64,000 bases of DNA from IMG/VR virus record IMGVR_UViG_3300025362_000477; one strand, given 5' to 3'. The stretch is from a virus. Lineage: Duplodnaviria; Caudoviricetes. Numbering within the stretch: position 1 is the first letter of the stretch; each line of letters starts with the position of its first letter. A program made the position numbers and the translations under genes. Shown here one piece after another: positions 3,127 to 64,000 of the stretch. Below the pieces are notes generated by a model. That model searched no databases, was not told where the DNA came from, and worked only from the letters and a program-made list of their open reading frames with translations.

Positions 3127-3201
3127 TGGTAGCGGGAATGGGAGTCGAACCCATCACGACGAGGTTATGAATCTCGCGATCTACCGATGATCTATCCCGC
3201 A
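3127..3201 (-). tRNA. tRNA-Met (CAT), initiator-like, CCA encoded
   Basis: TGCGGGA/TCCCGCT acceptor with a 1:72 mismatch, A11:U24 pair in the D stem, TT CAT AA loop, ATGGG-TTCGACT-CCCAT T arm, ACCA end. Confidence 0.9.
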
Positions 3202-3212
3202 ATATTTATTAT

Positions 3213-3461: not shown

Positions 3462-3838
3462 TTGTCTTTCAACTCGATAGTAAAATTTTCCATATGATGT
3501 GTACGATATATCAATCTCATATTATCATCATATAATATAGAGTTTCCACCATCTATCACACACTCAAAAGCAGTTGCATATATAAACTGTTTGCATTTTC
3601 TCCCAACTATATACAATTCTTCATCACCATCCAAGATGACAAAATCAGTTCCTTCGAGTTTTTTATAATCTAATTTTACTATATGTGAGGTACTCCACTT
3701 CCTATACAATCCATCCAATGTATCTTGCGGAACATTATCATAGATTGCATCAAATAAATTATCAGCAATAACTTTCTCACAATCTGCCAGATTGCGAAAG
3801 AATTCAATATGAAAAACTATGAATTCTTCAGTATTCAT
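3443..3838 (-). CDS. Hypothetical protein
   Basis: ORF with GGAG RBS; overlaps the next gene. Confidence 0.6.
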   Translation of the reverse strand: MNTEEFIVFHIEFFRNLADCEKVIADNLFDAIYDNVPQDTLDGLYRKWSTSHIVKLDYKKLEGTDFVILDGDEELYIVGRKCKQFIYATAFECVIDGGNSILYDDNMRLIYRTHHMENFTIELKDKWEYAK

Positions 3839-3893
3839 TTATCAACTCCAATATTTTTAATTTATGAAAATCTTCTACTCGATCAAAGTGGTG

Positions 3894-3965
3894 ATGCCCC
3901 CGTCAGAATCGAACTGATCATAGCCACAGTCAAAGTGTGGTGCACTACCGTTGTGCTAGAGGGCA
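3894..3965 (-). tRNA. tRNA-Gln (anticodon TTG), CCA not directly after the discriminator
   Basis: TGCCCTC/GGGGGCA acceptor with U1:A72, GCAC/GTGC D stem, CCACA-CT TTG AC-TGTGG anticodon arm, TCAG-TTCGATT-CTGA T arm; followed by T-CACCA. Confidence 0.92.
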
Positions 3966-13359: not shown

Positions 13360-13672
13360 CTATTATATTATCTCCATTATTTAATTCATCACATCGGATC
13401 CATCCTCTATTTTCAGTTAAAACTAGATGATCATGTGTTAATGTAAGAATAGAACCATCTTCCATTTCAACATCTAACCATTTTTTAAATATTTTATAAG
13501 GCCATATTTTTAAAATAGGAGTCCAAATATATTTCAAATCAATTTCATCATATCCTAAAATAAAAGAATCTTTAAATTGATCTACATTATCAATTATTTC
13601 TGAGAGATTAATCTTTTTAATTTGTTCTTTTTTAGTTTGAACATATACGAGTGTATGATTTCGAGGTACGCA
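13313..13672 (-). mobile_element. Split intein N-terminal half (IntN, 119 aa) of GyrB
   Basis: Starts CVPRNH (block A); LTLTHDHLV (block B TxxH); GWIRCDELNNGDNI end motif; then a stop codon. Confidence 0.9.
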
Positions 13673-19033: not shown

Positions 19034-22000
19034 TTATACCTTCACATCCAACATCATACCAGCCATATAAATATTTAAAAGGTCTTTGGTTTTACCACCC
19101 TTCGGTTCTCTATATGCAGCTTCTCCATTCTGAATAACATCAAATATAATTTCTTCTTTAGTAGATGTATCATCTGATAGGGGCCCGAGTAATTCTCTTA
19201 ATAACGATTCAGCGCCATGTGCAGCAACTGCCCAAGTGTCCATCTCACCTAAACGCTGTCCACCGCCATTTTTAGCTCCAGCAACAGGTTGACCAGTACT
19301 CTCTGAATACTTAGATATAGACCTAGAAGAAACTTTATACTCGGATTGCTGTTCTAACTTTTTATAATATAACCACCCAACAGTTACTGGATTTTGTGTT
19401 ACTGTTCCATATTCTGGTAATTTTAATACATATTTATCTTTAGCTCCAACCAATTTAAGAGCTTTTTTAATCATATCTTTAGTTGGGGCTTGAAATGGAG
19501 GAACATATATTGGAAGAAATCCTCTCTCTTTAATATCTTTCACATATTGAGTATATTGGTTATCTGATAAAGACTTATATGATTTGACAATATTTTCAGA
19601 TAATTTTTTATCTTCAGTATTATCCATTTGTTTATAAACGGATTCTAACAATTTCAATGCCTTATCATTCTTTTTATAACCATATGCAATAACTCTTTTA
19701 GCAAGAAACTTCCCTATTAACCCAGTATACAATTCAAACAAAGTACTAGGGTTCATACGATTAATGATCGCAATTGCATTAATAATCACTTCTATTCTCT
19801 CACCCCACGGAGTTATTGGCATATTCTCATCTTTTTCAATAAGAGTCAAAACACCTTTACCACCATGGTTATTTGTGATTTTATCACCAACTTGACATCT
19901 ATCCATTCTCTCAATTTTAAATACAATACGAATACCCGGAAATGGTTTTTTAGATCCAGCATCATTCACCAAGAACTTCTTCGGGAATTCACCTTTCATT
20001 TCAACATATCTTTTCTTAAATTTATTGAATTGAGGAATTAGTACTGGAAATTTCTTCAATGATATATTCGGATATATTTCAATAGCTATAATCTTACCAC
20101 CAGGTGATGGTTTTACAAACTGACCATCTACTAACTCATCTTCTTCAACTTCCAATAATTCTTCAACCTCTTTAGATGATCTAATAATTAAAGGTTCTCC
20201 ATTTTTAGTATCAGCTCCTTCTTCAGCAATCATTTTAATTGTAGATGTCGCATCTATATTAATTGTTATCTCTTCATATACTGGTGATACAAAATATTTA
20301 TTAGCAACAGATTCCGAAATAATATATCCATCTTCAAATGAATATCCTTTCCATCCCATTACGGCAGCTAACAAATTCCGACCAACAGAAATAATACCAT
20401 TCTTAATATGTTTACCTTCAGCCAATATCTGACCTTCTTTAACCTTCTCGCCCTCTTTAATAACCGGATGAAAATAATTCAATGAACTTTTACCCTGAGC
20501 TGATTTTAATTTTTCAGTATTCAATGGAATTATATGAACCTTATTCTTAACATCTCTAACATAAATAGCATTCTCACTCATTCGAACAACTATACCATCA
20601 ACTGGACTTTTTCTAATATATGAATCACTTAAATTGGTAGTTAAGATAGTTTCAAAACCAGTCTGAGCAATAGGAGGTTGATTTCCCATAATCGGAACAG
20701 ATTGTCGAGTCTGAGATGCCCCAAACATTACACGACATCCATCACATGAACCAATATAAGGTACAATACTAGCACTAGTACTTAATATAGAAGCCTTTGC
20801 AGCAGTTGTCTTTTCAAACTCCCCAAATGACCCTCGAATATTTCCAATGGCAGCATCAACAGTCAATTGATTTATGATACCAACTGAATCATTCTCTGGT
20901 GTATCCATTGGATCATAATTACCATAATATGAATTATGTAGACTTCTAGATGGTTTAGTCATTGCCTTTTTATCTGCTAATCCACCAGGTCCAACAGGGG
21001 ATACTTTAGTCAAACTAGATAGTTCTTCAAATGGATTAATATTTTCAATACTTTGAACCAATTTATCATTCACAATATTTTTAACTAACTCACGAGTATC
21101 ACAATAAAATTCGGAATCATCATCACCATGCTCACGCTGAGATAGATATACGTTATATGATTTCAAAATCTGTTTTTGAATCTGATAATTGAAAATTTCA
21201 GCACTTCTGATTCTTTGTTTTGATATATCATTACGATCATCAACCCGACCAGCAACAAGTCCTTTACATATATAAATCATACATCCATCAAAAGTAATTG
21301 GTTGCATCTTTGTCTTCAAAACTTCTACAGATATAGGTTCCATTATATTTTCTAATACCGAATCAATCCGGAAAATACTATTTCTATTTTCGGTCTGTTT
21401 AATAATCAAATCTTTAAAGTTTTTCTTATCAGTCAATACTTCACTAGTTAAATCACCATTAATCTCTTTGAAAGAATTAATTAATATTAGATTTTCTTTC
21501 TTATCACCATCCCATTCAAATACTAAATATTTTCCATCAGCTAATTCAACATAATTCTTATGATCTATTGGCTTAGATAATTGAATATTATGTTTCATAC
21601 CAAATAAATTACACATTTCTGAAAATCCCATAAAATAAGATAATAGTAATCCAGTAGGTAACCAATATCCCCCTATCTGAGATTGAAAATAAGATTTATG
21701 TTTAGTTTCCTTCCAATGCGTAGCCACTGGAGCATACATGGTTTGTAGTTTTGCCTGACCAGGTTTAAAGAAAAAGATCGGATCAACAACTGATTGATAA
21801 ACAAGATATTTCTTATTACCATTAACTAAGAATGTTCCATCTGGTTGTATCTCAGGAATGTCAATTTCAACCTCATGACTTTGCTTATTATCATCTTGTA
21901 ATGTTATAGAATATCTGATCATTTTAGTTGGTTCTAGGTCACCAGGATCTACGGGAACAGATGCCTTTTTGAATGATGAGATTGTTAATGGAAATTTATC

Positions 22001-23143
22001 TTTTCGTTTTAGAATACTGAATGATTTCAGCAAATCAGATTCAAATGATTCAGAGAAATCAACATGACGTTTACTCATCACAGCACTAGGATTTTTATTT
22101 TCATTAATTGAATTTATATTCGTTTTCTTATACACTGGATCTCTAGATTCATTTCTATAAGAATCTGTTTTCAAAATAGTAGGAGCTATATCTCTTTTAA
22201 TCTTTTTTATAGCACTATCTAATTTCTGACTCGTGATATTCTTTGATATTCTCTCTGCCTTCTTTAAATCTTTTGTCATCCCATAAACTGATGCTTTAAC
22301 AACTAATCTTTTTGCAGATTCAGGATTTAGATTACTAGAATTGATAATAGATGATCTCTTTTTAAAAGGAAGCTTCATAATATATTGTCTAACAGCAATT
22401 GCAATATTATGATCCTTTTCTGTTTTAGTAAGAGCTTCAATCCTATCAGACACCTGTTCTATTTCTTCATTTTCTTGATTAATTGCATCATCTACCGGGC
22501 GAGTCTTTATCTGTTTTAATAGACTTAACAATCGACCAATGGCAATCTGTGAAGTAGGAGTCTTTAATAATGAATATTTAATAACCCCATTGGTATTAAC
22601 TGCCATCATTACATAATCAAAAGGAACTTTTTCTTTAGATCTAAACATACTATATAATATATATGCTCGTTTCTCGAAAATATTTTCTGGCATCGGTTTA
22701 TCTAAATCAACATAATACATAAGAATATTATCCCGATCAGAATATACTGATTTTGTAGAGGTTAGATAGGATTTAATCTTAGATGCAACAATAGGTCGGC
22801 GATATGATTGTTTCTTATATTTAGCATCGACCATATCTAAATACAATGAAGTATCAACAAACATATTTTTGATATATGGTTTATTCACCCGAACTGGACG
22901 CAACCCATTTGAAACTATTGAAGATAAAGAATTAGCATTCACGACTAGACGTGGAATTTGTGCTGGTATAACTGTACCAAATCTAACAAATTGTCTTCGT
23001 ATTCTTAATTTAGAAAAAGCATTGGAAAAACTCGTATTTTCCGGATAAAAAATCAAATTATAATTCTTACCCTGATCAGAAGTAGTGTATGCCACATCCT
23101 TAGTAGTGAAGGGGAATAGTTTAAGTTTCTTTATATCAATCAT
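19034..23143 (-). CDS. rpoB: Phage multisubunit RNA polymerase beta subunit with a long N-terminal extension
   Basis: GTFLVNG, DPMDTPENDSVG, GASQTRQSVP, GDKITNNHGGKGV and GGQRLGEMD motifs. Confidence 0.93.
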   Translation of the reverse strand: MIDIKKLKLFPFTTKDVAYTTSDQGKNYNLIFYPENTSFSNAFSKLRIRRQFVRFGTVIPAQIPRLVVNANSLSSIVSNGLRPVRVNKPYIKNMFVDTSLYLDMVDAKYKKQSYRRPIVASKIKSYLTSTKSVYSDRDNILMYYVDLDKPMPENIFEKRAYILYSMFRSKEKVPFDYVMMAVNTNGVIKYSLLKTPTSQIAIGRLLSLLKQIKTRPVDDAINQENEEIEQVSDRIEALTKTEKDHNIAIAVRQYIMKLPFKKRSSIINSSNLNPESAKRLVVKASVYGMTKDLKKAERISKNITSQKLDSAIKKIKRDIAPTILKTDSYRNESRDPVYKKTNINSINENKNPSAVMSKRHVDFSESFESDLLKSFSILKRKDKFPLTISSFKKASVPVDPGDLEPTKMIRYSITLQDDNKQSHEVEIDIPEIQPDGTFLVNGNKKYLVYQSVVDPIFFFKPGQAKLQTMYAPVATHWKETKHKSYFQSQIGGYWLPTGLLLSYFMGFSEMCNLFGMKHNIQLSKPIDHKNYVELADGKYLVFEWDGDKKENLILINSFKEINGDLTSEVLTDKKNFKDLIIKQTENRNSIFRIDSVLENIMEPISVEVLKTKMQPITFDGCMIYICKGLVAGRVDDRNDISKQRIRSAEIFNYQIQKQILKSYNVYLSQREHGDDDSEFYCDTRELVKNIVNDKLVQSIENINPFEELSSLTKVSPVGPGGLADKKAMTKPSRSLHNSYYGNYDPMDTPENDSVGIINQLTVDAAIGNIRGSFGEFEKTTAAKASILSTSASIVPYIGSCDGCRVMFGASQTRQSVPIMGNQPPIAQTGFETILTTNLSDSYIRKSPVDGIVVRMSENAIYVRDVKNKVHIIPLNTEKLKSAQGKSSLNYFHPVIKEGEKVKEGQILAEGKHIKNGIISVGRNLLAAVMGWKGYSFEDGYIISESVANKYFVSPVYEEITINIDATSTIKMIAEEGADTKNGEPLIIRSSKEVEELLEVEEDELVDGQFVKPSPGGKIIAIEIYPNISLKKFPVLIPQFNKFKKRYVEMKGEFPKKFLVNDAGSKKPFPGIRIVFKIERMDRCQVGDKITNNHGGKGVLTLIEKDENMPITPWGERIEVIINAIAIINRMNPSTLFELYTGLIGKFLAKRVIAYGYKKNDKALKLLESVYKQMDNTEDKKLSENIVKSYKSLSDNQYTQYVKDIKERGFLPIYVPPFQAPTKDMIKKALKLVGAKDKYVLKLPEYGTVTQNPVTVGWLYYKKLEQQSEYKVSSRSISKYSESTGQPVAGAKNGGGQRLGEMDTWAVAAHGAESLLRELLGPLSDDTSTKEEIIFDVIQNGEAAYREPKGGKTKDLLNIYMAGMMLDVKV

Positions 23144-23152
23144 TAATTACCT

Positions 23153-26100
23153 CTAAAAATTTCCGGTTACAAGTTTCTCTAAAAGAGATTCGTCAGTGGG
23201 TCTATCATATATCAATCCAGTAGTAATGGAAGCTTTCGGATCCTCAAATGCCAATGCTTGAAGCCAAGATTCCAATTTCGGAATAGCCTTTGGGCCTCTT
23301 ACAACTGGATCATAATTCGGATTCAATCTTGCAGGATATGCAGGATTCCCCTTATCTCTAAGGAGATTGGATGCTAGAACTTCTAAATGAATCATATCAG
23401 TATTAGTATTCAATGTCAAATATTGATCATAAATTTTCATAAGAAAATGATCAGCGTTTTTGTAAGGAGTTCGACCAGAAAATAAAGATTCAATGATCTT
23501 AACCTGTTCTGAGAAAGCATCATTTGTTGGTACAGTATTTAATACTATCGATCCCTTCTTATAAGTAATAATAATAGCCTTAGCATCTTGTTTTATTTGC
23601 TTATCAGTTAAATCAATTTCAATTTTATTATCTAAGGTCACACTTGTGACAGTATCAGCATAGTTCAAATTAAAATAACCATAATTTAAATTAAGACTGG
23701 TTTTTGTTAATTCAATATCCTTTTTAGAATCTAAATAGTCAGCCATTGAAATATAAATGGAACCATCACTTAAAGCATGGAGTTCTGATGTGGTCTGTTT
23801 GAAATGTCTTTCTAATAATCTCTTATGTGATGAATCTAACATTCTAGAGATCTCAGACATGATATCCATTGTCTTAATAGATACACTACCACCAGTATGG
23901 AATGTCATCATAATCGTCTGAGTCAATCTTTCACCGCATATTTCCCCTGCTAGAATCCCAACATACTTTGTTTTGTTACGCATCATCATATCCCCATAAC
24001 AAGTACGACATAGTGATGGAGTAGTACAATACATGGGGGATCTCAGATGAACCACTTTGTTCATATGCTGTGATTTGTTGAAAGGGACAATTTTCCTCTC
24101 ATCATCAACGATATATCGACCTTCTAATCGACTGGCAATATCTGCATCAACTTTTATCGTAACAAACCTCTTAGTTCTACAATCTTTAATTCGTGGATCG
24201 GCTTCAACTCGTTGAAGTGCCGATACCAATTGTCGTGATAGATACCCAGTATCCGAAGTATTCAATACCCTATCAATAATACCTTTTCTCGAACCATAAC
24301 CACTTTCAAAATATTCATCGCTCTCAAATCCATCACTATAACTATTTTTTATAACACGAATACCACCATTTGGATCTACAAGCAATCCTTTCGCAACTAA
24401 GATCTGTCTTGATTGTTTATAACCATTCTTCAATCCTCCAGCCTTACCTATAATACCAATATTAGTGCCATTTTCCTCAACATGCTTTTGTAATGCATCG
24501 GTCATTCTATCTGTTATGAGACTAGCTTCTACAGGATCTTTAGCAGTATCTAACTCATCTTTCATTTTCATTATATGAGCAGGAATCTCAAAATCAGAAA
24601 GACTAAAACTTGGTGCCATAATAGTATAATATTTCATACCCAATTTAACAGACTCATGACAGAATTTTACATATGTTGGATTCCCATCTTCATGTTTATA
24701 GTCATTATATATTAAAGCTGCTAATTTATTGATTTCTTTTTTTCCTGTTGGTACATTAGTATGATATTTTTTAGAAGGTAATACCTTATTAAACATCACA
24801 CGACCAACTGTTGTGACCTTACCATCATATTTTATTATATCAATAGGAGACATTTCTGTTAATTGCCTATCATCCCTAATGACTATTGGAGCTCGTTCTG
24901 ATTTACTATCCTGAGTGAGAGCATATAATCCGATAACCATATCTTTTGAAAAGTCATCACTGATAGTCCCCATTGCATCCTTAGATTCAGAATTTATCAT
25001 TTTATCTTTAGTTTCTTGGATAGATTCTTTTGTTATAGGCACATAAATGGCCATTCTATCTCCATCAAAATCTGCATTATAAGCTCCACATTTTAAAATA
25101 TTTAATTTGATAGTATTACCATCAACCATTACCGGTTTGAACCCCTGAACAGACTCTGCATGGAGTGCTGGATCACGTTTAGCTAATACAACCTTACCAG
25201 CAATTGCTCGATTCACAGAAGCTTTTACCATTGTTTCTAATTCATCTGGGAGCTTAAATTTTTTATTAATACTAGACATTAAACGACGAGTAGATGGGAT
25301 ACTAAATGTTTGTCCATTAAAATCTAATAGAAGTTCAGCAAATTTCTTCTGATCAATATTCCCACTATTATGAATATCATAAATGATAAATGGTTCAAAT
25401 AGTTTAACTAACATCATAAAAGGGATACCGATTTCATCAATCTTAATCTCTGTAGCTGCACCAGTAATGACAGCCCCACCACTAAAATCAATTCTCTTTC
25501 CTAATATATTTTGACGAACAATACCCTGTTTCTTTGAAATCTTCTGAATGATATAATTGTATAAATCACTAACCAACTCATGCATCTTAGATGCAAGAAT
25601 ATCATACATCGGACCTTCCGTTAAAGAAATAGATTCCAATTGAATGGACTGTCTTAATATTTTAACATAATAATCATTAATTGGTTTAACTCTCATACCA
25701 CCAGAAATTTCATCAATTTCTGCATCTCTTGATGATGCTGGTATAACTATGCACTTATCAACGAAAACCATATCATGTTTCAAATAATTCATAATCATAT
25801 TTTTAACATCAATTCTCTTCTGATCAGTTTCTTCCCTTGAAATCATTTTCTCAAAATTTTTCACAACAGAAGTTATCCCATTAATATCACCTTCAGGATC
25901 AGCAATTAAAGTTCCTTTATCATCAAATCGAAATGCCTGCTTTCTTTCAATTGCTTCAATAATTTTTCTATTTAATGTCCATATTGGCTTAACTAATGCT
26001 GGATGAATAATTTTACAATGTAATTCAATATATGATAAAGTCTTTCGTCGTTCAGGGGAATCCTTTGCACCAAAGATCTTTTCAGAAAATAAACCTTCAG

Positions 26101-26200
26101 GATGTAATACTACACCTTTGCCAACAACATAATCCGGAGTGGTCACTGGGTCCATCAATTGTGTTATTTTTTTAATATCTGACAGATATATTTGGTTCAT
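23153..26200 (-). CDS. rpoC: Phage multisubunit RNA polymerase beta' subunit
   Basis: Catalytic NADFDGD; LGKRIDFSG, RDPALH, TSDTGYLSRQL, RSPMYC..CRTCYG and TQTIMMTFHTGG motifs; start MNQIY after an AGGAG RBS. Confidence 0.95.
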   Translation of the reverse strand: MNQIYLSDIKKITQLMDPVTTPDYVVGKGVVLHPEGLFSEKIFGAKDSPERRKTLSYIELHCKIIHPALVKPIWTLNRKIIEAIERKQAFRFDDKGTLIADPEGDINGITSVVKNFEKMISREETDQKRIDVKNMIMNYLKHDMVFVDKCIVIPASSRDAEIDEISGGMRVKPINDYYVKILRQSIQLESISLTEGPMYDILASKMHELVSDLYNYIIQKISKKQGIVRQNILGKRIDFSGGAVITGAATEIKIDEIGIPFMMLVKLFEPFIIYDIHNSGNIDQKKFAELLLDFNGQTFSIPSTRRLMSSINKKFKLPDELETMVKASVNRAIAGKVVLAKRDPALHAESVQGFKPVMVDGNTIKLNILKCGAYNADFDGDRMAIYVPITKESIQETKDKMINSESKDAMGTISDDFSKDMVIGLYALTQDSKSERAPIVIRDDRQLTEMSPIDIIKYDGKVTTVGRVMFNKVLPSKKYHTNVPTGKKEINKLAALIYNDYKHEDGNPTYVKFCHESVKLGMKYYTIMAPSFSLSDFEIPAHIMKMKDELDTAKDPVEASLITDRMTDALQKHVEENGTNIGIIGKAGGLKNGYKQSRQILVAKGLLVDPNGGIRVIKNSYSDGFESDEYFESGYGSRKGIIDRVLNTSDTGYLSRQLVSALQRVEADPRIKDCRTKRFVTIKVDADIASRLEGRYIVDDERKIVPFNKSQHMNKVVHLRSPMYCTTPSLCRTCYGDMMMRNKTKYVGILAGEICGERLTQTIMMTFHTGGSVSIKTMDIMSEISRMLDSSHKRLLERHFKQTTSELHALSDGSIYISMADYLDSKKDIELTKTSLNLNYGYFNLNYADTVTSVTLDNKIEIDLTDKQIKQDAKAIIITYKKGSIVLNTVPTNDAFSEQVKIIESLFSGRTPYKNADHFLMKIYDQYLTLNTNTDMIHLEVLASNLLRDKGNPAYPARLNPNYDPVVRGPKAIPKLESWLQALAFEDPKASITTGLIYDRPTDESLLEKLVTGNF

Positions 26201-26211
26201 GAAAAAATCTC

Positions 26212-26610
26212 CTAGTTGAGCTTTTTGGGATCCCATCGTTCTGGTGATGGTTTCAAAGATTGACTAACAGGAATTTTAGTCTGTCTCTTCTTCAGTTGCT
26301 CTCTATATTGTTTGTATTTCATTCGCTCTTTTTGTAATTGTATAGAAAAATATTTTATCTTTTTATTTAATGATCCTTTAGATACGGAACCATTCTTTAA
26401 TTTATTTAATGTAGAAATGATCTGTGTATAACCTCTCATTCTACAGGTACTAGAACATACCTTCACTTGAAAATTATAATCAGGACCATTTTTAATACTC
26501 TTCCTGCATTTATCAGAGCATTTCTTTAACATCTCTTTTGCAGCACTAGATGCAGCAAAAACAGAATTCTCAAAAAGAATAACTCTAGTAAAAATTTTGT
26601 CAGTATCCAT
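26212..26610 (-). CDS. Basic protein with a twin CX3C motif
   Basis: CSDKC...CSSTC followed by a predicted coiled coil; resembles the C-terminus of 53502-54404. Confidence 0.6.
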   Translation of the reverse strand: MDTDKIFTRVILFENSVFAASSAAKEMLKKCSDKCRKSIKNGPDYNFQVKVCSSTCRMRGYTQIISTLNKLKNGSVSKGSLNKKIKYFSIQLQKERMKYKQYREQLKKRQTKIPVSQSLKPSPERWDPKKLN

Positions 26611-26762: not shown

Positions 26763-28133
26763 TTACTTATTTTTTTGGTACCAATCGATACCTTGGTCTG
26801 CTGTTTTAAACTTCCCATCCATCTGAGCATCATAGATTTTCTGTAGAATGGACCCAAATGTCTTATTTGGAATCAATCCCATATCAATTAAATGCCTGCC
26901 GAAAACGATCCGTTTAGGTCTTGAATCATAAACTTCTAATTCTCGAGCTTGTTTTCTCAACCAATCCTCAGCGTAATCAAAATGAGATTCAACTGGTCCT
27001 CGACCCATCTTATCACAAGTTGAAACCCAAGTTAACCAATCGATTCTCCCAACTCTATTTGCCAATCTTCGAATAGCAGATTTGGAAGCCCCTGTAGCAG
27101 CAAATGTTGTCGGTGCCATATGATTAGTAACCAATGAAACTACACTTTCAATAATGAAATTTGGTTTCTTCTGATTACTAGAACCCATCAATCGGGACAT
27201 GAATGAGCGAGTAGGTTCTTTTCCTGCATATTCATGCCGTCTTGATCTGATTTGACCATCAATGAATTCAGTCGTTGCTGGCTTACCAAAGTCATGACAT
27301 AACACAGCGAACCCACATATAATCTGATCTTCAACATCTTCCATACCTCTGAGAGATGCGAAAGCGTCCATACAAAGTCCTGTATGGATAAAAACATCAC
27401 CTTCAGGATGCCATTCAGAATCTTGTTCCACTCCAATCAAATCACGAAGTTCTGGATAATAATCAATCCATCCAGTATCAACCAAAAACTTTAAAGCTTT
27501 TGATATATAGATTCCTTTTGTGATCAATTTTTTCCATTCTTCTAAAATGCGTTCTCGAGACAGATCAAATTGACACAACCCTTTACATAACTCCAAGGTT
27601 AATGAATCAACATCCAAATCAAATCTAGCAACAAACTGCATTCCCCGAAGTACCCGTAAAGGATCCTCTGAAAATGCACTTGATGTATGCCGTAAAATTT
27701 TAGCATGGAGATCACGAAGCCCATCAAAGGGATCAATGATAATATCATTGATCGGATCATATGCCATTGAATTAATTGTGAAATCTCGGCGAGATGCAGC
27801 TTCTCCAGGGGTCATTGATGGATCACCTTCAATAGTAAAACCTTTATGACCATCCCCAGTTTTAGAATCTCGTCGTGGGATTGAAATATCAATATCATGA
27901 TGTTTGACCTTAATAACACCAAAGGATTTTCCAACGATATCAATATCAAATCCGTTTTTTACCAAGGTATCAATGATACTATCAATATCGAGATTGTAAA
28001 TCTCAAGATCAATATCCTTGAACTCGGCTCCGATGATGCTATCTCTCACAGCACCACCGACAACATAAGTCAATCCACCAGAACCACGAATGATATTGCA
28101 AATGCTCATTACTAAATCAGGTAGTTTCATCAT
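26763..28133 (-). CDS. cca: CCA-adding tRNA nucleotidyltransferase with HD domain
   Basis: GGAVRD..DIDL, RRDFTIN, EDPLRVLR, WHPEG..H and LCHDFGK motifs; internal AAAGGA RBS before ATG 28133. Confidence 0.9.
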   Translation of the reverse strand: MMKLPDLVMSICNIIRGSGGLTYVVGGAVRDSIIGAEFKDIDLEIYNLDIDSIIDTLVKNGFDIDIVGKSFGVIKVKHHDIDISIPRRDSKTGDGHKGFTIEGDPSMTPGEAASRRDFTINSMAYDPINDIIIDPFDGLRDLHAKILRHTSSAFSEDPLRVLRGMQFVARFDLDVDSLTLELCKGLCQFDLSRERILEEWKKLITKGIYISKALKFLVDTGWIDYYPELRDLIGVEQDSEWHPEGDVFIHTGLCMDAFASLRGMEDVEDQIICGFAVLCHDFGKPATTEFIDGQIRSRRHEYAGKEPTRSFMSRLMGSSNQKKPNFIIESVVSLVTNHMAPTTFAATGASKSAIRRLANRVGRIDWLTWVSTCDKMGRGPVESHFDYAEDWLRKQARELEVYDSRPKRIVFGRHLIDMGLIPNKTFGSILQKIYDAQMDGKFKTADQGIDWYQKNK

Positions 28134-28751
28134 GAATCCTTTCATCTTTAAGTTGATCTTCCGCCATTTTTTAACTGCCGGTTCCATCATACCAGCAACT
28201 ACTGACCAATGAGTCAATTGATCTGGAGTGATCTCTCTCGGCTTATGCTTTAGATTGGCCTTCTTAGCACACTCGTTACATAGAAGGGCAATATGTGTGT
28301 GATCGACTAGGAACCAGCTAGCACCTGTGATCTTACACATCCGTTTGATATCCTCCTTTTCAAGAGGATATGGAACCAATATAGGATTATCTCGAACAGC
28401 ATCTTCTCTGGCAAGATTCATTTGATCAAAGAAATTAATCTTCTCATCAGACTCAGCAGTTTTCAATTCAATCTTCTTGAGTGAAATAATCATCTGAGCA
28501 TATACATCCTGTAAGGTAGTACCAGCAACCTGACAACCCCAACAACGAGGTACTGGAGGAGTAGTAGTAGATTCACCAATTCGTTTCTTTTTAGCCATTC
28601 TCTTCTTCAATTCAAGCATATCATGTTCATGCTTCAACGTATTAGCCTGATTAGCTTCCTGATGGATCTTACATGCTCTACCATCCTTATATTGGAAGGA
28701 TTTTCTGCGAGATACTTCTATCCCGCAGATATTACAAATAAAATTTTTCAT
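28117..28751 (-). CDS. Cys-rich zinc-finger protein, apparently fused in frame to cca (possible A6/A7 indel)
   Basis: CNIC, CKIH, CWGC and CNEC motifs; ATGA-coupled start at 28751. Confidence 0.5.
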
Positions 28752-29221
28752 TTCACATCCCTTATTAACCAATCAGGATCTCCACCATAGAACCGGAGTT
28801 TATTTAAAATATCGAACTCATTAAGTCGACCTTTAATTTCAAATAACTCAATCCATTGATGGAATTTCAATAAAGCATACAAACCATTATTATAATAATC
28901 TTTATACTCATTACATATTGGATTGGAACATTTTTTATCTTCCGGTAACCATAAGTTAATATTTTTCTCTATCAACTCTGCGAGTTTAGTTGAATCTTTT
29001 GTAGATTCAATTATTATCACTTCTCGTCGTATGCAATTACATACTTCGCAAACGACAACTTTTAGTTTCTTCACGAAGAATCGATCGAAGTAATAATTTT
29101 CATCAATCTCCTTTTTCAGAAGATTATATGCTAAATCAACTACTCCATTTTCTTGGAGAAATTTCTTAGCATTAGTGATGGAATTGAATTGTTCCATCGG
29201 GAACTCTTCAATTTTAAACAT
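28748..29221 (-). CDS. Hypothetical protein with CxxC motifs
   Basis: CEVC..CSNPIC motifs. Confidence 0.6.
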   Translation of the reverse strand: MFKIEEFPMEQFNSITNAKKFLQENGVVDLAYNLLKKEIDENYYFDRFFVKKLKVVVCEVCNCIRREVIIIESTKDSTKLAELIEKNINLWLPEDKKCSNPICNEYKDYYNNGLYALLKFHQWIELFEIKGRLNEFDILNKLRFYGGDPDWLIRDVK

Positions 29222-56498: not shown

Positions 56499-57152
56499 TT
56501 ATTTATTTTTATTCGCTCTACGAGCAGCCAGATAACCAGTTGCTACTCCGGTAGTAGCAATAGCAGCTCCAGTAGCAACATTTGAACCTTTAACTTTCGA
56601 AGCTTTATCTTTAGTTGCTTTAGCAATATCTTTAGCAATATCTTTAGCTTTACCTTTAACTTTCGAAGCTTTATCTTTAGTTGCTTTAGCAATATCTTTA
56701 GCTTTACCTTTAACTTTCGAAGCTTTATCTTTAGTTGCTTTAGCAATATCTTTAGCTTTAGCTTTAACTTTAGCTACTTTAGTTACTTTAGTTTTCGAAG
56801 GAGTAACTTTTTTACCAATAGAAGTAACTTTTTTACCAATAGCTGCTAATCCCTTCTTAATGTTAGCCTCTTCAATAATACCCAATACTGATTCTTGTAC
56901 TGGTGCTATATGGGCTTCATAAGCCTTCATAGCTACAAGTTCAAGAGCTTCAGTCTTCATATAATTAGTATCTCGATCTGGATTATAAACCAGATTCAGA
57001 AGCTGTTCATATGAAGCTTCATTAAGAATAAAATTCTCAGCGGAAGCCTTCTTTGATTCAGTAAGTACACCATCTACTCTAACCTGTTCAAGTAAAGCTT
57101 TTCTTGAAGCATAAACTAGATCTTTTCTATCTTCTTTAGTTAAAATGCTCAT
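56499..57152 (-). CDS. Triplet paralog C: conserved N-domain plus Lys/Ala-rich repeat tail
   Basis: MSILTKEDRKDLVYASRKALLEQV start; KAKDIAKATKDKASKVKG repeats; hydrophobic segment followed by RRANKNK. Confidence 0.85.
   Translation of the reverse strand: MSILTKEDRKDLVYASRKALLEQVRVDGVLTESKKASAENFILNEASYEQLLNLVYNPDRDTNYMKTEALELVAMKAYEAHIAPVQESVLGIIEEANIKKGLAAIGKKVTSIGKKVTPSKTKVTKVAKVKAKAKDIAKATKDKASKVKGKAKDIAKATKDKASKVKGKAKDIAKDIAKATKDKASKVKGSNVATGAAIATTGVATGYLAARRANKNK
56585..56765. repeat. About 54-bp coding tandem repeat (3 units, one with an internal 12-bp duplication)
   Basis: CTTTCGAAGCTTTATCTTTAGTTGCTTTAGCAATATCTTTAGC recurs. Confidence 0.85.
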
Positions 57153-57193: not shown

Positions 57194-57703
57194 TTATTCA
57201 TCATCATCATTTGGATCAAACTTAGATGGTTCGGTTTTATTCTTTGATCTACCAGCAGCATAACCACCAGCAACACCCATAGATATAGCTGATTTTGGAT
57301 GCTTTTTAGCAAATGCAGTAACACCTTTACCACTACGACTAACACCACGACCAACGGCACGAATACCAGATCCGACAGCCTTAGCACCATCCCTAACAGC
57401 GCCACCAATACCTTCTTCGATTTGTCCAAATACAGATTCTTCAACTACATCTTCAGTTAAATAATCCTCATATTCTTTCATAGCAATAGCTTCCAGAGCT
57501 TCAGTCTTAAGTAGACTAGTATCTCGATCTGGGTTATATGCCAAATTTAACAGTTCTTGATAGGTAGCTTCATTCAAGATGAAATTCTTTGCCGATGCCT
57601 TCTTTGATTCAGTCAGTACACCTTCAACACTTACCTGTTCAAGTAGAGATTTACGAACAGCATAAACTAAATCTTTTCGATCTTCTTTTGTAAGAATGCT
57701 CAT
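57194..57703 (-). CDS. Triplet paralog B
   Basis: Same N-terminal ~100 aa; Gly/Ala/Arg-rich tail and GVAGGYAAGR. Confidence 0.85.
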   Translation of the reverse strand: MSILTKEDRKDLVYAVRKSLLEQVSVEGVLTESKKASAKNFILNEATYQELLNLAYNPDRDTSLLKTEALEAIAMKEYEDYLTEDVVEESVFGQIEEGIGGAVRDGAKAVGSGIRAVGRGVSRSGKGVTAFAKKHPKSAISMGVAGGYAAGRSKNKTEPSKFDPNDDDE

Positions 57704-57717: not shown

Positions 57718-58335
57718 TTATTTATTTTTTCTGCGACCAGCAAGATAACCAGTTGCACCAACAGCAGCTACACCAGAACCAACAGCAGCACGGGCACCAT
57801 GTGTTTTCCAACGTTCTTTACCAAGATTTTTACTTGCAACTTTAACATCTTTAGCTTTATTGCTTAGTATCTTACCAGCTTTAGCTTTACCAGCTTTAGA
57901 AGCAATAGATTTCTTTGCTACCTTGGCCGCAGAACCCAAATTACCCTTTGCTGATTTCTTTGCTACCTTGGCCGCTTTTACTCCAGAACCAGCTAGAGCT
58001 TTTCCAAAGCCAGCTGCTTTTCGAGCAATCATATCTTTTGCACCCTCTTCGACCTGACCGAATACAGATTCTTCAACTACATCTTCAGTTAAATATTCTT
58101 CATATTCTTTCATAGCGATAGCTTCAAGAGCTTCTGTCTTCATATAATTAGTCTCTCGGTCTGGGTTATAAACCAGATTCAGAAGTTGCTCATAAGTAGC
58201 TTCGTTAAGAATGAAATTCTCAGCTGAGGCCTTCTTTGACTCAGTCAACACACCTTTGGTACGAACTTGTTCTAATAAAGCTTTTCTTGAAGCATAAACT
58301 AGATCTTTTCTATCTTCTTTTGTAAGAATACTCAT
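57718..58335 (-). CDS. Triplet paralog A
   Basis: Same N-terminal ~100 aa; AAKVAKKS repeats; ATGYLAGRRKNK end. Confidence 0.85.
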   Translation of the reverse strand: MSILTKEDRKDLVYASRKALLEQVRTKGVLTESKKASAENFILNEATYEQLLNLVYNPDRETNYMKTEALEAIAMKEYEEYLTEDVVEESVFGQVEEGAKDMIARKAAGFGKALAGSGVKAAKVAKKSAKGNLGSAAKVAKKSIASKAGKAKAGKILSNKAKDVKVASKNLGKERWKTHGARAAVGSGVAAVGATGYLAGRRKNK

Positions 58336-58398
58336 TCTATTCTCCTTCATGGTTAATTTACTTACAAAGTAACATACATTGAAACTTTATATTTTGTT

Positions 58399-58665: not shown

Positions 58666-59714
58666 CCACCATATTCTGAAAGAGCTTTAACTAATAAACC
58701 TTCAGCAACTGCTGTTAAGGGATCATCAGCCATACGAACATGTTTCACATCAAATGCAAAATCCTCTTTATATTCTGTTAATACCTCATTAAATAAAGGC
58801 AGGAATCCAGTAGCAAGTGAAGTTCCACCACTAACAATAATAGAAAGAGATTCAGGTAAATCAATATTATCAGTAACTTGATTTAATTTCACTTTAATTT
58901 GATCGAGTGAATAACGAATCATCTCTCTATAATAATAAACAATCGCTTCCCTAGTACGTCTTTCTTTCTTACCACCAATAGTAAAATTCTGGAGGTCAGT
59001 ATTACGTTCTTTAATAGCAGTAATTCTATTAGGTACAGTCCCCATTGAATTAGCTACATTTTCATCAATCCAATCTCCAGAACGAGCAACACTAAATGTT
59101 ACAACTGGAACGCTCTTATACGCGAGACACACATTGACCATACCCGCGCCAAATGAAAATGATAATCCAGTAAATTGATCATCTTGACAATGACTGTATA
59201 TAATAGCCATAGCTTCATTGAATGATTGTGCTCGATATCCGAGATCAGAAAATATTCTATGAAATACACCTTCATGATATGTTATATTATTTTTAGAATC
59301 AATTGATTCAGCTGGTACACTATATATACAATGACCATCATTTGTTGTACCAACTAATTTCTTTATAATCAACTCTAAAATATCAAGACTATCAATCTCA
59401 CTTGGAGATATTAACCCTTTTGACATAGGTCTCTTTACACTCTTCCCAAATATATTGCTAAAATTAAAAGCATCATTTCCAATAATATAAACGGAATCAT
59501 CAGTCTCAACATAGTCTATATTTGATAGCTCTGCCATGGGTACTTGACTTTTATCGAGAGGTAAATACATATTTCTAATAGATGAAATTTCAGCAGATTT
59601 ACCTTTAGGTTCAGCCAGTACTATATTCATAGTCCCACAATCAACCGCGATAATACGAGGTGGTTTCGGAGCTGTTAGATCTACAACTTCTGATTTTGTT
59701 TTCTTTTCAGGCAT
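58662..59714 (-). CDS. Actin-fold ATPase (MreB/MamK/ParM-like)
   Basis: IAVDCGT (phosphate 1), NEAMA (connect 1), SFGAGMVN (phosphate 2), VSGGTS (adenosine) and DPLTAVAEG (connect 2). Confidence 0.85.
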   Translation of the reverse strand: MPEKKTKSEVVDLTAPKPPRIIAVDCGTMNIVLAEPKGKSAEISSIRNMYLPLDKSQVPMAELSNIDYVETDDSVYIIGNDAFNFSNIFGKSVKRPMSKGLISPSEIDSLDILELIIKKLVGTTNDGHCIYSVPAESIDSKNNITYHEGVFHRIFSDLGYRAQSFNEAMAIIYSHCQDDQFTGLSFSFGAGMVNVCLAYKSVPVVTFSVARSGDWIDENVANSMGTVPNRITAIKERNTDLQNFTIGGKKERRTREAIVYYYREMIRYSLDQIKVKLNQVTDNIDLPESLSIIVSGGTSLATGFLPLFNEVLTEYKEDFAFDVKHVRMADDPLTAVAEGLLVKALSEYGG

Positions 59715-60600
59715 TTATATTCTCCAAGGTAGATTTAAATTCACTTATTACTAAATTTTTATTTTGTTCCCATTTATTCTTTTTAATTCTTATACACTTG
59801 AATCCATATTTCATATAATCCTCATCTTTCTGAATATCATAAGGTTTATATGTTTCATAATTATCAATAAAATGATGACGTTCATCAAATTCTATTACTA
59901 ATTTCAATTCTTCAATATACCCATCAGGAAAATATCCAATCATTCGTGGATTTCGAATTATTTTATATTGAGTATGTTTTTGTATCTCATTCAAACACGG
60001 ACGTTCCATATCACCAATATTTGGCATCAATGGTTCACCATTTAATTTTTGCATTTCAACTCTATTGATTGCTATATTTCTTAATTTCAAACGAACAGAA
60101 TATATTTGACTTGGATTTTCTACTCCATATTTATTCATGCATGTTTTCTTCTTTTTCTCTTTGATATATTTAGATTTATTAGGATTATCAACACCATATT
60201 TTTTTAAATATGAATATTTTTTTTTCTGTTTTATTTTTTCTAATTGATTTGGATTTTCTACTCCATATCTAAACATGCAAGTATCTTTTTGTTTCTGCCG
60301 AATCTCAATATTCTCACTTGGTGATCCACACCCAAATCTATCATAACAAGTTATTTTAAATTTATTCCGAACTATCAATGAATTTGAAGAACATTTATTA
60401 CTACAATATATTCGATAACCACTTACTATATTTTGATAGTATGTAGGATCCCCACATACAAGACATATATCTTCATTTTCTTTTTTAAGATATTTATCAT
60501 AATATTCTTTAGATGATAAATGATGTTTTTGTCTAAAATGAGAAACTAAACCTTTCACTAATTTAAATTCTTTACTGCAAATTTTACATTTAAGATCCAT
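59707..60600 (-). mobile_element. Homing endonuclease, YGVxN-repeat/EDxHD-like family
   Basis: KCKIC..HFRQKH, YGVEN repeats and YFPDGYIEELKLVIEFDERHH; overlaps both neighbours. Confidence 0.78.
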
Positions 60601-61708
60601 TCTTCTCTGCCATAGTAGCACCAAGATCCCCTAATTCACAAGCTCCACCAGAACATGCTTCTCCAGCACTACCAAATCCCAATGAACCATACTCATCCTC
60701 ATAACATTCTGACCAATCAATATCAACATAATCTCGTTTAAGATCACACCAAATTTTCCAGTTATGAACATCCTTTAAACAATAAGTCATCAAACGTTCA
60801 TTACCATCAAAATATCTTACAGCAAATTGTTTGGCCCTTCTTATCCATTCAATCTTATCAACATAATTAGATACTTCTGATTTCAACCATGCATTTAATA
60901 ACTTAATTGGAGATTTTGGGGAAAGTCCTAAAGCTATCCAATTAGCGCCATTCATCTGACAATCAGATTCAATCTTAATTTTCAATTTATTAGAATCTAA
61001 TATCTCCCCAACACCAAGAACACAATCACTAGCAGCCCATAAATCATTATTAAATGCGCGTAACCCATCCACTATCAACCCACTCGCGAACATAGAAGCG
61101 TTACCATGCATCCTAACCATTTCGTATGGAGTATATACCGCAGTGAAGGGTGCCTGTGGGTAATCCTTATCACCCGATACTGGAAGAAATGATATACCAG
61201 CAAACCACATTCTATTCCGATATACGAACTTTTCTACATCATCCCATTCATCGGGTCGAACATGGATAGTATTAGAAACATTATGTTTCAACCAAGGACG
61301 ATTTAATGAAGTATATCGGGTTCCGGCTTCTACCCAATTTTGTTGGGTAAGCCTAACATTTTCGAGTAATTCTAATGCACCTACAGTATTTTTTGTTTTT
61401 GCCCCATCAGGAACTTCACATAAGAAAGTAATAATTTTATCAGTATCAGACCATACTGATTGTTCAACTGCAGACGGATTAAATGTTTCAAAATATTGCA
61501 GTGGAGTTTCTATCTTATTCGATTGAACTCTTCTAAAATATCTCTTAGCATGATGAGGATGAATTCCAGACGCTGTTCCTAAAATACAACTTGTTGTATT
61601 ATGAGTCACTGTTCGATTAGATAATTGATATGTATGTGAACCGCCGACCTCAATGTCTACAGTCATTTGTTTCTTCTTATTCAATAATGGTTTTAATATA
61701 ATTTTCAT
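60590..61708 (-). CDS. nrdJ: Class II ribonucleotide reductase C-terminal fragment preceded by a split-intein C half
   Basis: 37-aa IntC ending VTHN, then TTSCILGTASGIHP..RYFRRVQ; C-terminal ACSGGAC; GGGGGA RBS before ATG 61708. Confidence 0.92.
   Translation of the reverse strand: MKIILKPLLNKKKQMTVDIEVGGSHTYQLSNRTVTHNTTSCILGTASGIHPHHAKRYFRRVQSNKIETPLQYFETFNPSAVEQSVWSDTDKIITFLCEVPDGAKTKNTVGALELLENVRLTQQNWVEAGTRYTSLNRPWLKHNVSNTIHVRPDEWDDVEKFVYRNRMWFAGISFLPVSGDKDYPQAPFTAVYTPYEMVRMHGNASMFASGLIVDGLRAFNNDLWAASDCVLGVGEILDSNKLKIKIESDCQMNGANWIALGLSPKSPIKLLNAWLKSEVSNYVDKIEWIRRAKQFAVRYFDGNERLMTYCLKDVHNWKIWCDLKRDYVDIDWSECYEDEYGSLGFGSAGEACSGGACELGDLGATMAEKNGS
61598..61708 (-). mobile_element. Split intein C half (IntC) of NrdJ
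   Basis: TVDIEVGGSHTYQLSNRTVTHN|T matches blocks F/G, with Thr at +1. Confidence 0.9.
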
Positions 61709-62747
61709 AAAATCCCCCGTCATTTAAGTTATAAAATTCTTGTTCCCATATAATTAACACATTATATCCCAATTCTTTCAATGTATCAATTCTTTTCTGA
61801 TCAGATTTCCATATATCAGAAGCTGTCATTTTCATAGTGGGATGATAAGAATCAGAATTCCATTGAAGTGGATTACAATGCCAATAATCTCCAAAAAATT
61901 CAATTATTGTATTGTAATCATCTAAAAAAATATCAACAAAATAAGACAATATTCGTTTAGAATCAGTATATCTTATATGATATTCATCCAATATTTTTAA
62001 AATTTCTTTCTCTGGTTTTGATTGGCTCCCTGATTTCCATATTTGAGATTTAACCATCTTTTCATATCTTTTAGTTCCCTCTTTTTCACCATATTTATCA
62101 ATAAAAAATACTAAATCATGAGTTGAATTTTTCTTCAATATCTCCGCAGCTTCTATTTCCGTATACCCCCGTTTGATCCAATACTGTTTATTGAAATAAC
62201 TATTAGTTCTTAGTTTTGAAATATATTTTAGATATCTTTCACACCCTTTAACATCCCCGTATCGATCAACAAATGAATTTAATGTCTGGGTAGATCTAAA
62301 AGAATGTTTTTTCTTAATATCTTTAATCTCTACATCATCGTATCCATTCAATCTCAATGATGCTTCACTAACTGATAATTTTTTATTTTTTTCTTTATAT
62401 CTCAATAATCCATCATCTTTACCATATTTATCAACATACCATTGAAGAGTACCCCGCTTTTTATAATTTAACAATACTTTATTCCATTTTTTCAATCCTA
62501 TTTCATCGCCAAACTTTCGAATATAATAATCTTTATCAAAACCTTTCAATGGTAATATATCATCTAAAGTATAAGTAGGCGGTAAAAATTGAAGATAAAA
62601 CTCAAAACAAGATGATTTTGGATTTCTATCTGGAAAATTTTTTTGTTTGAATTCTCGCATAGATATCTGCAAATCACATAATTTTTTAAATTTATCTAAT
62701 TCCAATTCAAACTCAGTAATTTTGTTTTTTGCTAGGATTACCTTCAT
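61677..62747 (-). mobile_element. Vsr-like homing endonuclease separating the nrdJ halves
   Basis: Repeated F.DKYG..EG..RY units; SKPEKE..VDIF..IIEFFGDYWH..D.KR..LGY.VLIIWE motif. Confidence 0.8.
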
Positions 62748-62807
62748 AAATTAAACCTCTGTTAAATTAATATAATTATATACTTTTAATTTAATTCATA
62801 TCATAAA

Positions 62808-63137
62808 TCAAAAAGATACTATATCATCACCGACATCCAATTCATCAGCACGCTTCCATAATCCATTAGTTAATTTAAACTTATGATTAGGAGTACATGT
62901 ATATATTGATCCATCTTCAAATGGAATATTGTACACATCAGATTCACCATTAACATATAATTTTGTAACCTTTTCCAATTCATCATTCTCATTATAAATA
63001 TATAATGGATATTTCAAATCTAACCATATATCTGATTGATTTTCATAATCCTTTAAATCATAACCCTGTTCATTAAATATGAGTTCTAAACTCTTATCAC
63101 CATCAATAGTTCTAACTTCACTATCTATAGAAAGACA
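62808..63137 (-). mobile_element. Split intein N half (IntN, 109 aa) of NrdJ
   Basis: CLSIDSEV (block A), CTPNHKF (block B), WKRADELDVGDDI; then a stop codon. Confidence 0.92.
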
Positions 63138-64000
63138 TCCCGCTGGTTTAACGCAAGTTGCTCTAGCACATTTATTAATCCCAAGAATAGCAGATATCCG
63201 CTCATTCTCAGATAATATTAATTTAGCTCCTTGTCTTTGTAATTTAGGATCAAATGCAATTTCAGGAACATCGGACATACCAGTCATTGATACACCAAGT
63301 AAAGCTTCTTTCTCTGCAATAAGATGACTCACCTCACCAAGATAATCAAATTGAGTATATTTAGCTTGAATAGTGCCAAGAATAGCTCCTGCCTTACACG
63401 CTTCTAAAAATCGTTCTGGACTAGTAGCTTTTTTAAGATTAATTTCACATAAGTTACAAAATTGCCATCCAGATAGAATATCATTATTACCCTGAATTCT
63501 AATTTCATCAGCAAATTTCACTCTAAGTTCATCTGTCAAATCAAGTTTAGCAAACATACCAATTTCAACACATGGATTATATAAAGCATCAACATTATCA
63601 GCCCACACAAATCCAGGTTCACCAAATTCTTTAACTCTATGCATCAATTTTGAAAATGTTTCTCTATCAGTACCATTTCTAATTAGAACAGCTGAATTAT
63701 TAGATCTAGCTCTATGTTTAAATTCTTTTCTCCATGATCCAGTCTTTGAATCTGCCATTTCATCATCTTCTGGTGAGAATAAACAAATGGTTGCACTACG
63801 TCTAATACCTCCTGATAATACTGCTTCTGAAGAATGCATTATAATATCATAAGCATTAATTGGCTTCAGTTTATCTTGATGTTTAGAACATATATCCATT
63901 AAATGAGCAATAGCATCTAAAGATTCATGCAATTTATCTGGACCCGGAGCCTTAGCCCCTGACGATAACGGTGAACCTTTTGGTCTAATTTCACTATAAT
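62808..64000 (-). CDS. nrdJ: Class II (B12-dependent, monomeric type) ribonucleotide reductase N-terminal fragment, 5'-truncated by the window edge
   Basis: EIRPKG..APGP continues in frame to the window end; SGGIRRSA, SNNS, GEPG, NPCVEI, CNLCE and TCVKPAG motifs precede the intein Cys1. Confidence 0.93.
   Translation of the reverse strand, partial: YSEIRPKGSPLSSGAKAPGPDKLHESLDAIAHLMDICSKHQDKLKPINAYDIIMHSSEAVLSGGIRRSATICLFSPEDDEMADSKTGSWRKEFKHRARSNNSAVLIRNGTDRETFSKLMHRVKEFGEPGFVWADNVDALYNPCVEIGMFAKLDLTDELRVKFADEIRIQGNNDILSGWQFCNLCEINLKKATSPERFLEACKAGAILGTIQAKYTQFDYLGEVSHLIAEKEALLGVSMTGMSDVPEIAFDPKLQRQGAKLILSENERISAILGINKCARATCVKPAGCLSIDSEVRTIDGDKSLELIFNEQGYDLKDYENQSDIWLDLKYPLYIYNENDELEKVTKLYVNGESDVYNIPFEDGSIYTCTPNHKFKLTNGLWKRADELDVGDDIVSF

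Follow-up and report, generated by a model that had tools for sequence, protein, structure and literature searches.

Organization of the nrdJ locus

The window considered here is a stretch of 64,000 nucleotides (nt) of DNA from a virus of the Caudoviricetes (Duplodnaviria), IMG/VR record IMGVR_UViG_3300025362_000477. At one end it holds nrdJ, a gene for a ribonucleotide reductase (RNR), in pieces that carry the two halves of a candidate split intein. A free-standing homing endonuclease gene stands between the halves, and a second endonuclease gene adjoins the 3' end of nrdJ. All elements of this fractured locus lie on the minus strand (table 1). The N-fragment is read in the window as one open reading frame (ORF; 63998..62808), in which the extein is followed in frame by the N-terminal intein half (IntN). 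The same contig continues beyond the window (L013) and shows the N-fragment complete at 576 amino acids (aa), of which 467 are extein and 109 are IntN; nrdJ is therefore in two pieces, not three. The C-terminal intein half (IntC) and the C-extein form a single ORF of 372 aa, which after ...VTHN reads on as TTSCILGTASGIHPHH.... The IntC start codon lies 32 nt inside the 3' end of the endonuclease ORF and is preceded by GGGGGA-tttt. An earlier note on this DNA had described the same anatomy: CVKPAG|C, a 109-aa IntN, a 60-bp gap, a 356-aa endonuclease and a 37-aa IntC led by a ribosome-binding site and ending in HN|TTS. The description is correct to the base, and the second endonuclease that the note saw at the 3' end of nrdJ is real, with an 11-nt overlap with the stop codon.

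Table 1. Features of the nrdJ locus, followed by other features of the window (positions in the whole stretch).
Feature	Position	Strand	Details
nrdJ N-extein	63138..64000	-	open at window end; last 287 of 467 residues in window; ends ...ARATCVKPAG
IntN, 109 aa + stop codon	62808..63137	-	Cys1 63137-63135; Phe109 62813-62811; stop 62810-62808
Spacer, 60 nt, AT-rich	62748..62807	-	AGAGG ribosome-binding site 8 nt ahead of endonuclease ATG
Free-standing homing endonuclease, 356 aa	61677..62747	-	between IntN and IntC ORFs
IntC, 37 aa	61598..61708	-	ATG at 61708; ...VTHN at 61600-61598
nrdJ C-extein, 335 aa + stop codon	60590..61597	-	Thr+1 61597-61595; stop 60592-60590
Second free-standing endonuclease, 297 aa	59707..60600	-	ATG at 60600; 11-nt overlap with nrdJ stop
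Actin homologue, 350 aa	58662-59714	-	directly downstream of nrdJ region
ORF, 88 aa	58399-58665	-	N-terminal C-K-S-C
Three tandem paralogues	56499-57152, 57194-57703, 57718-58350	-	
RNA polymerase beta/beta'-like ORFs	19034-26236	-	1369 and 1027 aa
CCA-adding enzyme homologue	26763-28772	-	669 aa
Topoisomerase II large subunit	13313-15154	-	
Three tRNAs (tRNA-Glu, tRNA-Met, tRNA-Gln)	1004-3965		

The metagenomic source of the assembly, and the low depth of other samples (2-6x word depth), might raise the suspicion of an assembly artefact or a decaying pseudogene. Both junctions are nevertheless bridged by identical contigs from two further, independent salt-lake samples. Contig X2 has no differences from the window over 62403-63354, which takes in the IntN stop, the spacer and the endonuclease start; contig X3 has none over 61568-62294, which takes in the endonuclease stop, the IntC start and the HN|T junction. 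The same ORF boundaries recur in relatives at 35-77% protein identity, found in other studies (L007, L009/L010, L017/L018), and the architecture as a whole is seen in at least six diverged loci from different studies. In addition, 91 representative clusters among the best 150 matches to IntN end exactly with it. These conservation data already refute an artefact or pseudogene for practical purposes, and we give that explanation next to no credence. Four 'joints' suggested by read mapping have sides of only 21-23 letters and were rejected as matches to repeats or to other organisms, not deletions. A Megablast search of the 4.3-kb region against 50,697 phage records gave no match.

The host gene

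NrdJ of the window is assigned to the B12-type class II RNRs of the monomeric RTPR type (ribonucleoside-triphosphate reductase), by its sequence match to RTPR models across both fragments. The N-fragment matches the RTPR of L. leichmannii (PDB 1L1L) with an expectation value (E) of 3e-9. NCBIfam model TIGR02505 (RTPR) finds the N-fragment at E 1.8e-42 and the C-fragment at E 5.2e-10, the latter at positions 517-678. Each fragment scores under the 340-bit whole-protein cutoff of this model, as expected, because the two are halves of a divergent phage enzyme. On the profile of PHROG 367 (ribonucleotide reductase) the N-fragment covers positions 35-522 and the C-fragment 520-663; the two ORFs thus meet at a single point within a single family.

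Splicing the exteins together in silico gives a protein of 802 aa. Uninterrupted relatives are found on six viral contigs (L001-L006) and have 734-808 aa, with ...CVKP[A/E]G[S/T][T/S]SC... at the corresponding place. Against these the junction shows no insertion or deletion, and identity is 52-65% on either side. The C-extein begins Thr+1-T-S-C-I-L-G and carries the redox pair C-S-G-G-A-C at its C terminus. The thiyl-radical motif NPCVEI is uninterrupted, which agrees with the earlier note, and the break lies about 125 residues downstream of it at KPAG|TTS. This point is within the strictly conserved KPxG[T/S]xS loop, continuous in all intact alleles; going by class I and class II structures, the loop probably binds phosphate.

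The ORF of 88 aa that separates the actin homologue from the paralogue array (table 1) has a C-K-S-C motif at its N terminus. Pfam gave no match to it; it could encode a glutaredoxin/NrdH-like redoxin serving the RNR.

The split intein

IntN runs from Cys1 through a block B with T-P-N-H to DIVSF and the stop codon. The NCBIfam intein_Nterm match begins exactly at Cys1, with a score of 25.4 against a curated cutoff of 24.5, and Pfam Intein_splicing and the DnaB mini-intein 1MI8 also match IntN. IntC reads MKIIL ... TVDIEV ... HTYQL ... VTHN. Across 22 relatives of IntN, Cys1 and the Thr and His of block B are invariant. D18, E20, H25, Y27, H36 and N37 are likewise invariant across 22 relatives of IntC, in which the C-fragment starts alike. 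The residues of splicing (Cys1, block B T..H, D18, H25, H36 and N37) are kept without change at 38-68% identity. The +1 residue, for which the earlier note called Thr uncommon among characterized split inteins, is Thr in 15 of the 22 IntC relatives and Ser in 7, the same T/S alternation as in intact alleles. The features of a class 1 intein (C1, T-P-N-H, H36-N37, T+1) are present, and in relatives each is either invariant or, at +1, T/S. Together with the anatomy, the intein_Nterm match at Cys1 and the colinearity of the joined exteins with intact alleles, they bear out the earlier claim of a split intein at KPAG|TTS. Judged by its sequence, the cassette is a mini-intein of the canonical class 1, broken at the point where endonucleases usually insert by the gene of a free-standing EDxHD (Vsr-like) endonuclease.

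The net charge of IntN is -14 and that of IntC +4. Modelled as a complex, each with 5 extein residues attached, IntN and IntC score 0.80, against 0.19 for the best of 3 controls. The runs agree in at least 94% of their contacts, and the partner has a predicted local distance difference test score (pLDDT) of at least 77. Among solved complexes, 58 of 80 come up to the mark applied, as do 2 of 110 mismatched pairs; these counts hold only roughly here because the alignments were ones made for this analysis. Given these alignments and the existence of solved split-intein structures, the pass speaks for likeness to a working split intein and is not proof of binding.

Alternatively, the intein halves may no longer splice and may only hold the NrdJ pieces together non-covalently, like the mobile-element-derived tails in nrdA of phage Aeh1. 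The arrangement of that phage, nrdA-a / mobE / nrdA-b, was reportedly described by Friedrich in 2007. As in the window, the gene of an RNR large subunit is interrupted by that of a free-standing homing endonuclease, which overlaps the downstream fragment; it differs in having no intein and pieces that reportedly join non-covalently (Crona et al. 2010, PMC3045599). That account gives non-splicing assembly of an RNR from fragments a precedent. A dimerization tag, however, would not be expected to preserve the residues for all four splicing steps in relatives down to 38% identity, nor to lie at a break inside a strictly conserved loop that every intact allele keeps continuous. Non-covalent assembly is accordingly considered very unlikely in the window.

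The endonuclease between the intein halves

The N-terminal part of the 356-aa endonuclease consists of a beta-hairpin region and four helical KYG-x3-G repeats; the nuclease domain is C-terminal, at about residues 240-340. Its single-sequence matches are weak in Pfam (Vsr, E 0.028) and PDB (Vsr, E 0.02); NCBIfam vsr matches at E 3.9e-7. A profile of 24 sequences finds Vsr in PDB at E 7e-4 and I-Bth0305I (3R3P) at E 0.02. The AlphaFold (AF2) model has a pLDDT of 84. Compared by Foldseek, it has a target template-modelling (TM) score of 0.76 to the catalytic domain of I-Bth0305I in 3R3P, with probability 1.0, and of 0.53 to Vsr 1CW0. The top Foldseek matches were mitoribosomal helical-repeat proteins with root mean square deviations >19 A, and were rejected as generic matches to helical repeats. 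None of the 24 homologues departs from D272, E283, G286, H290, D316, W334 or E335, and conservation of D287-Y-W is at least 90%. The conserved residues correspond to the E/D/H/D signature by which the EDxHD family is defined (PMC3239194). Sequence, profile and predicted fold agree in placing the protein in the Vsr-like EDxHD homing family, which sharpens its earlier description as Vsr-like. Its N-terminal 240 residues are presumably the DNA-binding part, by analogy with I-Bth0305I.

The prototype of this family is I-Bth0305I (Taylor et al. 2011, PMC3239194). The two proteins have in common the nuclease fold and E/D/H/D residues, short repeated helical modules at the N terminus, and the order of DNA-binding and then nuclease domain. 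The KYG-x3-G repeats of the window endonuclease were not matched to NUMOD motifs. The genes also differ in location: that of I-Bth0305I lies in a group I intron of recA, that of the window between intein halves. Rfam (E up to 0.1) gave no match over 59000-64000, and there is consequently no sign of a group I intron. The overlap of the endonuclease and IntC ORFs, 32 nt in the window, is 13-32 nt in relatives.

Distribution of the allele

An exhaustive HMMER search with the 109-aa IntN as query was made over 1.84 billion representatives of clusters at 50% identity. It returned 670 matches at E <=0.001 and 142 at E <=1e-10. Among the best 150 matches, 102 stand directly after x-P-x-[G/A], 86 of them after K-P-x-G. 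The sequence ends with the intein (the split form) in 91 of these 102 and continues in 11. In most of the 11 that continue, the intein is a contiguous mini-intein (141-153 aa) complete with a homologous IntC and HN|[T/S]. A word-indexed search with the IntN region gave 7 matches. The family at this RNR loop comprises contiguous and split forms, with Cys1 and with Thr or Ser at +1. The KPAG|TTS allele is one of a large metagenomic family that is unannotated in public data. It is far from unique, and its novelty is therefore smaller than the earlier note implied.

Of cultured phages, PC14 and NCTC12673 of Campylobacter (NC_031909, NC_015464) carry a contiguous mini-intein in nrdA, APTA|C...SHN|TSG. 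It is related to the window intein (34% identity to IntN, E 1e-10) and sits at the homologous point of the RNR loop. It differs in that the gene is of class I, the intein of about 153 aa is unsplit and holds no endonuclease, and Hef-type endonuclease genes flank it. LR756500.1, a 462-kb uncultured phage (L012), has the full split cassette with IntN, a 376-aa EDxHD endonuclease and IntC. Identity to the window is 42% in IntN, 36% in the endonuclease and 41% in IntC; the RNRs themselves are essentially unalignable.

Other fracture points occur in the same phage nrdJ family. On a marine T4-like contig (L009, 1863-7143) nrdJ is in three pieces with two split inteins. The first is at ALYNP|CVEI, with an endonuclease of 262-275 aa of another type; the second is at KPAG|TTS with an EDxHD endonuclease, and the middle piece therefore begins with an IntC and ends with an IntN. 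At least two further split-intein sites were seen. One, ...SHN|SATICLFS, falls within the RRSATI motif; the other, ...VHN|CVEIG, precedes the thiyl-radical Cys (P0032, P0034, P0060, P0083; P0025, P0029, P0044, P0050-52, P0057-58, P0081, P0103, P0117). With KPAG|TTS, the SATICLFS and CVEIG sites make three recurrent fracture points in one enzyme family. A subgroup of N-inteins lies two residues further on, at K-P-S-G-N-A|C, in another RNR lineage (P0312, P0320, P0322, P0337, P0345, P0349, P0362). In P0334 (after residue 905) IntN reads in frame into a GIY-YIG-like 'YVYIIYNK...YIGCQ' motif, and in P0354 (after residue 745) into 'YGKE' repeat modules. From their sequences these two may be IntN-endonuclease fusions or read-through calls.

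Probable mobility of the cassette

The C-extein tree was built by maximum likelihood, with a quick LG+G4 search, from the 120 best word-matched sequences with at least 250 aa of C-extein. In the resulting tree of 111 C-exteins, 22 are split, 88 are intact and one is unclear. The split state changes 17 times, at least 10 of these changes being forced by well-supported branches; the 17 changes come close to the mean after shuffling, 20.4. The distribution is sporadic. The window's own clade consists of four split alleles, and its nearest neighbours, P0005 and P0006, are intact at the KPAG|TTS site. Identity to the nearest relative is 75-77% in the exteins, 68% in IntN, 54% in IntC and 52% in the endonuclease. 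Tree and identities are compatible with repeated gain by homing and repeated loss, gains and losses not being separable.

The same figures bear on a different possibility, that the cassette is a fossil: the intein splices, the endonuclease has lost homing or taken another role, and inheritance is vertical only. The endonuclease does diverge fastest of all the parts, and all four closest alleles, those of the small clade, carry the cassette. Yet the catalytic D/E/H/D and the WE motif are invariant in 24 homologues, the ORF is intact at every locus examined, and cassettes occur in scattered places on the nrdJ tree and in an unrelated RNR as well. A purely vertical fossil is judged unlikely, if clearly less so than a cassette that fails to splice.

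Comparison with known fractured genes

Dassa et al. 2009 (NAR 37:2560; PMC2677866) described the same organization in 26 metagenomic loci, nine of them of RNR, and named the Vsr-like endonuclease family. In such fractured genes the endonuclease and the downstream ORF overlap by 6-69 bp (PMC2677866). The window has what defines them: two colinear ORFs on the same strand, ends that correspond to IntN and IntC, and a separate endonuclease ORF whose 32-nt overlap is within that range.

The closest described systems are NrdJ-1 and NrdJ-2. They have in common with the window a class II RNR, a canonical split intein, a free-standing endonuclease gene on the same strand between the halves, an overlap of its 3' end with the IntC ORF, and an origin in phages or metagenomes. 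The intein parts are of similar size, with an IntN of about 105 aa and an IntC of 33-54 aa against 109 and 37 aa in the window. The charge polarity of the window, negative in IntN and positive in IntC, is that reported for NrdJ-1 (PMC2677866). The insertion points differ. NrdJ-1 and NrdJ-2 are inserted at the thiyl-radical Cys, one residue past the NrdA site, whereas the window insertion is at KPAG|TTS and leaves NPCVEI intact. The window also differs in its +1 Thr (Ser in some relatives), in its intein family, and in a hairpin and TATAAATA that are not evident. The arrangement has thus been known since 2009, and its position in nrdJ differs from that of the fractured nrdJ genes previously reported in the literature searched.

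No description of a split intein at the KPxG|[T/S]xS site of nrdJ was found in a literature search that left InBase and many subscription papers outside. The locus may represent a natural split-intein allele, very abundant and so far undescribed, that occupies the K/A-P-x-G|[T/S]-x-S loop of RNR, a proposal to which we give a little less than an even chance. As part of this proposal, the cassette with its EDxHD endonuclease may have moved between unrelated RNR lineages, as the shared sequences suggest.

Expression signals were compared with those of the published loci. In 15 of 16 of these the start of the endonuclease gene is preceded by a regulatory hairpin, frequently together with TATAAATA (Dassa et al. 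2009, PMC2677866). Among the relatives of the window, the spacers of L007 and L009 contain TATAAATA. LR756500.1 has a strong hairpin over the endonuclease start codon (L012, 5340-5397; -14.6 kcal/mol, z -4.96), which resembles the translational hairpins described for fractured-gene endonucleases. The window spacer has one sigma-70-like match (10/12). Matches in the sigma-70 scan numbered 20, fewer than in shuffles (30.4), and an 11/12 match at 61789-61761 carries no weight; no terminator was found.

A model for expression, splicing and homing

The nrdJ gene is very probably a 'fractured gene', cut at the K-P-x-G|[T/S]-x-S loop by a mobile cassette, with trans-splicing and homing as the inferred mechanism. 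The proposed steps are as follows. (i) The three ORFs would be read from one strand, and a separate ribosome-binding site, located within the endonuclease ORF, would serve translation of the C-fragment. (ii) The acidic IntN (-14) and the basic IntC (+4) would associate to form the HINT fold. (iii) Cys1 would form a thioester, Thr+1 would take over the N-extein, and cyclization of Asn37 would release an active NrdJ of 802 aa. (iv) During co-infection, the endonuclease would cut a cassette-free nrdJ near the KPAG/TTS codons, and repair would copy in the whole IntN-endonuclease-IntC cassette.

Several points weigh against this model. Splicing, DNA cleavage and the endonuclease target are inferred. 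The complex model may have passed because the predictor was already familiar with solved split-intein structures. The number of gains and losses is only approximate, since it comes from a quick LG+G4 search on the best 120 word-matched sequences. A hairpin in the spacer upstream of the endonuclease is no better than in shuffles (z -0.04), and the exact TATAAATA late-promoter element was not found in the window spacer.

Genome context

The second endonuclease, of 297 aa, combines a C2H2 zinc finger with 'YGVxNP' repeats of the DUF7487 type (Pfam, E 2.5e-18) and a nuclease domain of the DUF559 type (Pfam, E 4.2e-6), and matches the homing endonucleases of PHROG 3339 at E 8.6e-24. It is absent from the 3' end of nrdJ in the relatives L007, L009 and L017. 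Compared directly by BLASTP, the two window endonucleases show a marginal local match (E 0.019); they are regarded as kin because they have PHROG 3339 and Pfam families in common. Another free-standing gene of the DUF7487 and DUF559 type, again with a C2H2 finger and 'YGVxNP' repeats, lies upstream (L013, 3689-4633), beside thyX and between ORFs of 236 and 154 aa. Both these genes and the intein-borne one are found within about 8 kb.

The actin homologue belongs to the Volactin family (Pfam PF25216, E 5e-72), and an actin of this family also adjoins nrdJ in the relative L017. The family was defined in haloarchaea; here it occurs in a jumbo phage of 31% GC from a salt lake. The three tandem paralogues have a common N-terminal domain (MSILTKEDRKDLVYA...), diverging Lys/Ala-rich tails with KGKAKDIAKATKDKASKV repeats, and then a Gly/Ala-rich hydrophobic end segment; Pfam gave no match to them.

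The window sits in a large phage genome. Contigs with these genes reach 230 kb, and the reads come from salt-lake metagenomes. Besides the RNA polymerase beta/beta'-like proteins, topoisomerase II and CCA-adding enzyme of table 1, the window encodes a baseplate hub and a RecA/UvsX-like protein. The large RNA polymerase, CCA-adding enzyme and topoisomerase II ORFs mark it as part of a jumbo phage.

Implications

No concept is altered by these findings: the arrangement, the endonuclease family and the mechanism were already established. Natural split inteins are the main tools of protein ligation, and each orthogonal pair with new junction requirements is useful. The window offers a candidate pair with Cys1, Thr/Ser at +1, and the native flanks KPAG and TTSC. 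If it is true that nobody has characterized the allele, it would supply an orthogonal pair for trans-splicing that is new and has Thr or Ser at +1 of the junction, and with it a natural series of mini-intein, split intein and in-frame IntN-endonuclease fusions for the study of how endonucleases enter inteins. The locus and its relatives show the region of the KPxG|[T/S]xS loop to be a second major site at which cassettes of intein and endonuclease insert into the class II RNRs of phages. A cassette gained and lost repeatedly at this site, in coexisting mini, split and fused forms, would bear on the 2009 model of endonucleases residing in inteins.

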